64,000 bases of DNA from NCBI RefSeq assembly GCF_003334765.1, contig NZ_QOWT01000005.1; one strand, 5' to 3'. How positions within the stretch are numbered: the stretch's first letter is position 1; each line of letters opens with the position of its first letter. The notes beneath the pieces are model-generated. The model was given only the letters and a program-made list of their open reading frames with translations. It made no database searches and had not been told where the DNA came from. A program made the translations under genes and the position numbers. This document shows, piece after piece, positions 57,231-57,250 of the stretch. This DNA is from Escherichia coli. GTDB lineage: Bacteria > Pseudomonadota > Gammaproteobacteria > Enterobacterales > Enterobacteriaceae.

Positions 57231-57250
57231 TTCTCCAGAGTGCTGGAGAA
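57231..57250. promoter_or_regulatory. Perfect inverted repeat TTCTCCAG-AGTG-CTGGAGAA abutting the yqhC start codon
   Basis: 8-bp arms with 4-bp spacer; 3' arm contains the GGAGA Shine-Dalgarno of yqhC (ATG at 57251); lies in the yqhD/yqhC divergent control region. Confidence 0.6.

Follow-up and report, generated by a model that had tools for sequence, protein, structure and literature searches.

The stretch of Escherichia coli DNA analysed here (64,000 nt, referred to below as the window) carries the divergent genes yqhD and yqhC. The former encodes an aldehyde reductase and is read from an ATG at 57114 on the minus strand; its regulator gene, the latter, lies on the plus strand, where RefSeq/PGAP places a 299-aa coding sequence at 57308–58207 for an AraC-family protein with the domains PF06719 and PF12833/PF00165. 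The original prediction had described a perfect inverted repeat with 8-bp arms between the two genes, directly in front of an ATG at 57251. Such a repeat is present at this place, but it is longer than described: a 24-bp palindrome, ATTTCTCCAG-AGTG-CTGGAGAAAT, spans 57229–57252, and its two 10-nt arms (57229–57238 and 57243–57252) are 100% complementary and separated by a 4-nt spacer. At its 3' end, the palindrome takes in the first two bases, A and T, of the 57251 ATG. Relative to the transcription start sites considered below, the palindrome occupies -62 to -85 of yqhD and approximately -50 to -27 of yqhC.

Dinucleotide shuffling of the window gave only 0.7 ± 0.8 perfect 10-bp inverted repeats (loops of 3–8 nt) per 64 kb, which scales to ∼0.0015 such repeats expected per 136-bp spacer. 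Because the shuffles yielded so few, the occurrence of the repeat within the 136-bp yqhD/yqhC spacer is not a matter of chance. The region 57100–57330 is 100% identical to the K-12-derived and O157 chromosomes and was found in 5413 of 5426 complete genomes, and even those E. coli alleles that diverge most (97% identity) have all of their SNPs outside 57197–57317. Other identities considered for the repeat were set aside. A terminator was rejected, there being no U-run after the stem on either strand; by eye, the repeat holds neither the TGTGA-N6-TCACA of a CRP operator (the sole TGTGA is at 57176–57180, over the yqhD -10) nor the GT-N-AC core of a GntR-type (GlaR) operator.

The repeat is the published 24-bp palindrome of the yqhD/yqhC spacer and is thus already known in outline. 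Frazao et al. 2018 (PMC6115493) present it, along with a neighboring SoxS-like box, as a sequence of the yqhD promoter that YqhC may target, and Chang et al. 2021 (PMC10991953) give "a 24-bp palindrome consisting of two 10-bp repeating units" as a predicted YqhC site. As quoted in these two papers, the description goes back to Lee et al. 2010, Turner et al. 2011 and EcoCyc. In the passages of the published accounts that cite the palindrome, it is neither dissected nor placed relative to the yqhC promoter, and these passages mention neither the coincidence of its right arm with a -35 element nor the overlap of its left arm with a 21-bp direct repeat. What is new here is the assignment of the yqhC promoter, along with the consequences of a mis-annotated start codon.

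The yqhC start codon and transcript

The ATG at 57251 is the start of yqhC only in the K-12 gene model, in which YqhC is 318 aa long. We fetched 80 Enterobacteriaceae loci, in all of which yqhD and yqhC are divergent, and the alignment comprised 81 sequences. In the orthologue alignment, the conserved part of the protein starts precisely at M20 of the 318-aa model, and 299 aa is the annotated length of most orthologues. An ATG is found at the M20 position in 81 of 81 loci but at the 57251 position in only 6 of 80, and an in-frame stop codon lies between the latter position and M20 in 59 of 80. The yqhD and M20 ATGs are 190–198 nt apart in 78 of the 80 loci and 171 and 177 nt apart in the other two.

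The 3' arm of the repeat had been taken for the ribosome-binding site of yqhC. Its GGAG can pair with the anti-Shine-Dalgarno sequence (-6.4 kcal/mol) but ends 2 nt before the ATG at 57251, under the usual Shine-Dalgarno-to-AUG spacing of 5–9 nt. Most genera have a well spaced GGAG before the M20 ATG (median, -5.95 kcal/mol); the Shine-Dalgarno sequence before 57308 in E. coli is weak (TAAGAAAT, -1.3 kcal/mol). With this spacing, the RefSeq start at 57308 and a transcript that begins downstream of the repeat (see below), the assignment of the 3' arm as a ribosome-binding site fails. Overall, the results indicate that the 318-aa K-12 model of yqhC very probably includes 19 excess codons.

The position of the yqhC promoter has been called unknown (PMC8262776). 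Differential RNA-seq of strain BW25113, reported in U00096.2 coordinates (Table S2 in Romero et al. 2014, PMC4681348), lists two start sites at the locus, RVS_(II)-3153213 and FWD_(III)-3153325, and the first of these is the only reverse-strand start in that table between 3151551 and 3156212. It belongs to Class II, meaning that it is TAP-enriched without a clear coverage step, and it comes from a single dataset. Coordinates of U00096.2 were carried to U00096.3 with an offset taken to be +1978 from the yqhD coordinates, and from U00096.3 to the window by w = 3212469 - g, as derived from RefSeq coordinates. The latter relation agrees with the Reg-Seq zero point (3155262, 44 bp upstream of the gene start), and, as a check on the offset, the forward start lands at 57166, 1 nt off the published initiation C at 57167. 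The reverse-strand start converts to 57278, or to G57279 if it is shifted by the same 1 nt as the yqhD calibrator; at position 57279, 83% of the 81 sequences have G and 95% have a purine. The mapped plus-strand start of yqhC at 57278/9 agrees with the position predicted beforehand from conservation alone. The only position listed in the ROSE supplement is internal (3,154,942). With a start at 57278/9, the palindrome lies at approximately -50 to -27, its end 26–27 nt before the start, and is therefore not transcribed from this promoter; the 57251 ATG falls at -28, and ∼29 nt of 5' untranslated region precede 57308.

Upstream of this start, we propose TGGAGA (57244–57249, plus strand; 4 of 6 matches to TTGACA) as the -35 and CACAAT (57267–57272, plus strand), the same hexamer as the yqhD -10, as the -10 element of yqhC. 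The pair is the top-scoring and sole conserved plus-strand candidate between yqhD and the conserved start codon. Consistent with a sigma-70 promoter, the two hexamers are 17 bp apart, the mapped start lies 6–7 nt after T57272, the -35 bases are conserved in 98–100% of the sequences, and A(-11) and T(-7) of the -10 are 100% invariant within the pattern C-A-C-A-[A/C]-T; the spacing between the hexamers is ungapped in 81 of 81 sequences. The consensus score of the pair is 8/12, below the scan threshold of 9, so the scan itself did not list it.

The original prediction had also raised the possibility of an 8-bp RNA hairpin that sequesters the ribosome-binding site, and had stated that this could not be told from a DNA operator by sequence alone. 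In its extended form, this reading holds that the repeat is transcribed in the yqhC mRNA, where a 10-bp hairpin would hide GGAG and the AUG at 57251 and thereby control translation of the 318-aa YqhC. Read as RNA, a 32-nt stretch is indeed stable in silico (-14.3 kcal/mol, z = -4.5), and the K-12 gene model together with the GGAG pairing given above would suit such a hairpin, as would the expression of a plasmid-borne GFP fusion made at exactly the ATG at 57251 (PMC8262776) and a "-10-like" block at 57207–57227 from Reg-Seq, which would put a transcription start just before the repeat. Against this stand the mapped start at 57278/9, with no other reverse-strand start listed nearby, the rarity of the 57251 ATG and the frequent stop codon before M20, and the short distance between GGAG and this ATG. 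Further, a single hexamer within 57207–57227, CAATGT, has both A(-11) and T(-7), and its A is lost in most genera.

The stem itself shows no covariation. Across its 10 pairs in 71 distinct sequences, 83.0% of cells were paired compared with 82.7% in column shuffles; two-sided changes occurred at one pair only, the outermost, which is unpaired in 53 of the 71. At mid-stem, C57235 is changed to A, a natural variant of Citrobacter, with the opposite base unchanged in 15 of 71 sequences, 32 of the 71 lack the innermost pair, and no compensatory substitution supporting the stem was found in this set. Outside Escherichia, the complementarity is what two independently conserved sequences give. A scan of 56900–57600 against Rfam 15 (E ≤ 10) returned two chance-level matches, neither of them on the repeat as an RNA element. 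The original prediction had named a yqhC transcript starting downstream of 57240 as the first half of what would count against it, and the start at 57278/9 is such a start. The RNA reading is thus largely refuted, and we consider it very improbable that the repeat works as a translational switch.

The putative tandem half-sites and the arms of the palindrome

The yqhD promoter lies on the minus strand on the other side of the palindrome. Its elements are TTGAGA (-35, 57197–57202), CACAAT (-10, 57174–57179) and initiation at C, as given by Lee et al. 2010 in the part quoted in PMC6115493, and both hexamers were matched by our consensus scan; at 9/12, this validated promoter scores only a little higher than the proposed yqhC promoter. 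In the 81 sequences, the -35 is near-invariant (five positions 100%, 57197 at 78%) and the -10 is invariant. The published initiation C is at 57167, and FWD_(III)-3153325, which converts to 57166, is flagged as a start known to RegulonDB (Romero et al. 2014, PMC4681348).

Between this -35 and the palindrome we recognized two putative YqhC half-sites. R1, TGCTCATTTCTGCC (TGCACATTYCTGCC in most genera), at 57203–57216, is the SoxS-like box; its first base adjoins the yqhD -35 hexamer, and it covers -36 to -49 relative to the yqhD start. R2, TGCCTATTTCTCCA, at 57224–57237, covers -57 to -70 and overlaps the left arm of the palindrome. R1 (TGCTCATTTCT, from 57203) and R2 (TGCCTATTTCT, from 57224) are direct repeats, the motif TGCnnATTTCT being read twice with a start-to-start distance of 21 bp, and this spacing is free of indels in 81 of 81 sequences. 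Two half-sites ∼21 bp (two helical turns) apart, with the proximal one against the -35, are the arrangement of an araI-like tandem operator. Binding of YqhC was reportedly lost, in the 2010 work of Lee, when a SoxS-like site was mutated. Genomic SELEX gave a single YqhC peak, in the yqhD/yqhC spacer only, and YqhC shifts an EMSA probe covering 57115–57265 (PMC8262776). YqhC thus binds somewhere in the spacer, and R1 and R2 are the bases that it probably contacts.

We next turn to how the palindrome is conserved. In a MAFFT alignment of the 81 spacers, from ∼25 genera, 57172–57292 is without a gap in every sequence. In the left arm (57229–57238) the conserved part is ATTTCT[C/A]C, and it forms the 3' end of R2, the promoter-distal half-site: conservation is 86–100% over 57229–57234 and then 77, 94, 81 and 58%. 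In the right arm (CTGGAGAAAT, 57243–57252, plus strand), which carries the proposed yqhC -35, C, T, G, G, A and G are each conserved in 100%, the three A that follow in 93–100% and the final T57252 in 23%; at its inner edge, the conserved block of this arm stops sharply. Positions of the left arm read in mirror order, from 57238 to 57230, are conserved in 58, 81, 94, 77, 100, 100, 96, 100 and 100%, against 93–100% for 57243–57251; the outermost pair is A in 86% versus T in 23%, and the inner CT of the right arm is conserved in 100% versus 81% (A57237) and 58% (G57238) for the inner AG of the left arm. The arms are thus not conserved symmetrically about the dyad, as a symmetric operator would have been. 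Invariant or nearly so are R1 as TGC..ATT.CTGCC (57203–57216), R2 as TGTCTTGCC..TTTCT.C up to 57236, and CTGGAGAAA at 57243–57251.

These data bear on the reading that the symmetry is a chance feature without a function of its own, or is left over from a local duplication. The perfect 10-bp palindrome is present in only 8 of the 81 sequences (six from Escherichia and two others), and the symmetric inner bases and the spacer at 57239–57242 vary freely, all of which suits that reading. The low expectation of ∼0.0015 per spacer argues against it, as does the (near-)invariance of both arm cores across ∼25 genera and all E. coli alleles examined. The arm sequences are clearly functional, so a repeat devoid of function appears highly unlikely; their exact symmetry may be accidental, as the explanation that we prefer (see below) already has it.

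Loci of representative homologues with 49–57% protein identity were also read. In these, the left arm is kept as TTGCCYAWTYCT. One representative (52% identity) is divergent from a Zn-ADH gene, and another (57% identity) lies downstream of an Fe-ADH gene; at both, TCAATGCAC-N14-TTGCCYAWT is kept, with the spacing of R1 and R2, and at the latter TTGAAG and CACAAT, 17 bp apart, are also kept before the ADH gene. No counterpart of the right arm was found in the control regions of the distant homologues examined. The retention of the left-arm half-site at this distance indicates that the left arm is part of an ancient operator half-site. The right arm is found only where yqhC is divergent with the enterobacterial promoter.

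The arrangement may alternatively be a true dyad operator, on which a dimer of YqhC or of another regulator would occupy TTTCTCC-N8-GGAGAAA. AraC-family dimers can use inverted repeats, as RhaS/RhaR and AraC do, and the palindrome has been treated in the literature as a candidate YqhC site. At least 8 of the 10 complementary positions are kept in 66 of the 81 sequences, CTGGAGAAA is invariant beyond the needs of a -35 hexamer, and the right arm reads on the other strand as TTTCTCCAG, with the TTTCT(C)C core common to R1 and R2, followed in many genera by GCA/TGCC at nearly the half-site spacing. Counting against a dyad operator, the conservation of the arms is asymmetric, the distant homologues keep R1 and R2 without the right arm, and the retained complementarity is that expected from two independently conserved sequences, with no compensatory change. 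The right arm, taken as an inverted third half-site, shares TTTCTCC with R2, but its TGC part is poorly conserved (38–73%) and 1 nt out of register; in addition, the ChIP-exo peak of YqhC lies elsewhere (see below). On balance, we regard a true dyad operator as possible but unlikely. The original prediction of a dimeric operator in DNA pointed in the right direction, in that the block is a target proposed in the literature and is strongly conserved; its symmetric form is not borne out by the asymmetry of the arms and the homologues that have no right arm.

In a variant of the dyad reading, YqhC would alternate between an inverted pair, R2 with the right arm as R3 (the palindrome), and the direct pair R1 and R2, in the manner of the AraC light switch or of site R of MelR. 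In the absence of aldehyde, a dimer on R2 and the right arm would cover the yqhC -35 and leave R1 empty, with yqhD unactivated; the direct pair would activate. If this were true, aldehyde, or the mutations of constitutive mutants, would move YqhC to R1 and R2, activating yqhD-dkgA and freeing its own promoter, and the palindrome would serve as the "off-state" operator in a bidirectional switch of very compact design. Such a three-half-site switch seems to us decidedly doubtful.

A control region probably shared by two promoters

The reading that we prefer, to which we assign a probability of roughly 0.7, is that the palindrome is a composite element at the DNA level, belonging to two back-to-back sigma-70 promoters, and not an RNA element; most likely, it acts as promoter/operator DNA upstream of the yqhC transcript. 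Two separately constrained sequences would here happen to be complementary. R2 would be the half-site farther from the promoter in an araI-like tandem operator, and the left arm, ATTTCTCC, would form its end; from R1 and R2 the AraC-family activator YqhC would turn on yqhD-dkgA. The right arm, CTGGAGAAA, would carry the yqhC -35 TGGAGA, with the -10 CACAAT 17 bp downstream, the transcription start at 57278/9 and the start codon at 57308.

The two start sites are 112 bp apart and the two -35 hexamers 41 bp apart, and R1, R2 and the first part of the palindrome take up these 41 bp. Bound to R1 and R2, YqhC would sit between both -35 elements, covering -36 to -70 relative to the yqhD start and approximately -42 to -76 relative to that of yqhC. 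From this position it could affect both promoters, which would explain the positive autoregulation that has been reported; we infer this autoregulatory consequence from the geometry of the sites. In constitutive yqhC mutants, the activity of the yqhC promoter was higher (PMC8262776).

Several data fit the composite element poorly. A ChIP-exo peak of YqhC at 3153318–3153348 in U00096.2 (signal-to-noise 18.7; Gao et al. 2021) converts to 57143–57173, over the yqhD start and leader and 60–80 bp from R1, R2 and the palindrome. A fusion joined at 57250 to the GFP ATG, without the proposed -10, still gave a signal (PMC8262776), which may stem from vector read-through or from a minor upstream start. 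Reg-Seq, whose insert is without the native -10 and start site, yielded one consistent expression-determining block, at 57207–57227 and labelled "-10", and this block coincides with R1/R2. Taken together, the GFP signal and the Reg-Seq block suggest that some transcription may start upstream of the repeat, at least on plasmids. Over 9 bp, CTGGAGAAA is invariant, which is more than a -35 requires; the right arm may therefore be read by something else as well. The Class II status and single source of the yqhC start and the weak Shine-Dalgarno sequence before 57308 in E. coli likewise count against the preferred reading. As a separate observation, TGGAGA agrees with the -35 consensus at only four of six positions, which counts against the promoter assignment.

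The layout of yqhD resembles that of araBAD, for which the features of araI used in this comparison are well established. Like araI1-araI2 at araBAD, R1 and R2 lie next to a divergent AraC-family gene, with half-sites 21 bp apart and the proximal one abutting the -35; as with araC, the promoter of yqhC would lie in the same spacer and be autoregulated. In contrast to araC-araBAD, yqhC/yqhD has only 112 bp separating its two start sites, a far more compact arrangement, and is not known to have a distal O2-type site or looping. The N-terminal domain of YqhC is PF06719 and not the arabinose-binding domain of AraC, and the YqhC half-sites described here are predicted. A second parallel is the class II marbox of MarA, SoxS and Rob: R1 resembles a marbox (AATGCAC...) and is immediately adjacent to the -35. 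One 20-bp box is acted on by MarA or SoxS as a monomer, whereas yqhD has two boxes at a fixed spacing of 21 bp and YqhC has a large N-terminal domain, and these two features suggest a dimer. Hairpins that sequester the ribosome-binding site, such as ROSE elements, fourU elements and translational operators, are alike on paper, in that a stable stem would bury GGAG and AUG; unlike in such hairpins, the palindrome is not part of the transcript as mapped, the conserved start codon is a different one from this AUG, and the stem shows no covariation.

The value of these results lies in corrections rather than in a discovery, and they leave the general view of AraC-family regulation unchanged. The 160-bp Reg-Seq window (57092–57252) omits the conserved -10 and the start site because it was set 44 bp upstream of what is very probably the wrong start, and the long gene model is also why the published yqhC promoter-GFP fusion has its junction at 57250. 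For YqhC-based aldehyde biosensors and for the tuning of furfural and aldehyde tolerance, the analysis offers a testable map of the 112-bp bidirectional region, with two proposed half-sites spaced by 21 bp, mirror-image promoters that both have the -10 CACAAT, and a palindrome that would lie over the distal half-site and the yqhC -35.

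The leader of the yqhD mRNA and other inverted repeats

At its extreme 5' end, the yqhD leader contains a GGCAG...CUGCC stem-loop (57144-57163, minus strand), which spans approximately +4 to +23 relative to the yqhD start site at 57166/7 and was found in nearly all of the 81 aligned Enterobacteriaceae yqhD-yqhC spacers. The stem displayed some compensatory changes, from GGCAG/CUGCC to GGUAG/CUACC, in which C-G was replaced by U-A (5 of 48 sequences) and G-C by A-U (2 of 48). In most genera except Escherichia, the stem-loop is followed on its 3' side by a U-rich run, CUCUUUUUU. 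The element could serve as a 5'-end stabiliser or as a leader attenuator, and we note that the published ChIP-exo 'YqhC site' (57143-57173) overlies it.

As a separate observation on the same leader, RNAalifold paired the GGG within AAGGGA, the yqhD ribosome-binding site, with a conserved CCC (within ACCCAC; 57155-57127, minus strand). The resulting helix, a weakly supported candidate, comprises just 3 bp and is largely invariant, with G-U variants.

Elsewhere in the window, five further short-loop inverted repeats with perfectly matched 10-bp arms were detected (at ∼29108, 30855, 51217, 55867, and 61658; 0.7 expected from shuffled sequences), and these may be terminators. The repeat at ∼55867 is located between dkgA and yqhD.

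The yqhC reading frame and coding region

Inspection of window positions 57080-58207 revealed that the yqhC frame is open upstream across the entire spacer and into yqhD, and this accounts for the 355- and 375-aa YqhC database entries (handles P0001, P0002, and P0004), which translate the promoter region, including the palindrome at 57229-57252. Within the 299-aa frame, one locus (L003; E. coli E200086, NZ_CM128605.1) contains an IS1 element directly past codon 4, at the equivalent of window position 57318, and is a natural knock-out of the regulator gene yqhC. The furfural-tolerant strain EMFR9 is reported, in work by Turner in 2011, to carry an IS10 insertion, of which the IS1 insertion in L003 is reminiscent. 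Two published features also lie within yqhC: an antisense sigma-54 binding site at ∼57571 (U00096.2 3152920; Bonocora et al. 2015) and an in vitro 5' end at ∼57527 (U00096.3 3,154,942; ROSE study).

The divergent promoters and published yqhC reporters

The -10 regions of yqhD (57170-57179) and yqhC (57267-57276) mirror each other, with the hexamer CACAAT present in both, and their flanks form a 10-nt inverted repeat that is 90% complementary, with the two parts 87 nt apart. The -35 hexamers are similar too (TTGAGA for yqhD and, as proposed, TGGAGA for yqhC).

Both the Reg-Seq insert (57092-57252) and a GFP fusion (57036-57250; PMC8262776) were anchored on the start codon of the 318-aa YqhC model and therefore end at or just short of 57252; as a result, neither design contains the conserved yqhC -10 hexamer (57267-57272) or reaches the yqhC transcription start mapped at 57278/9. 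In the Reg-Seq study, yqhC was assigned a '(0,0) architecture', with a '-10' placed at 57207-57227. Both this architecture and that '-10' should be reinterpreted.
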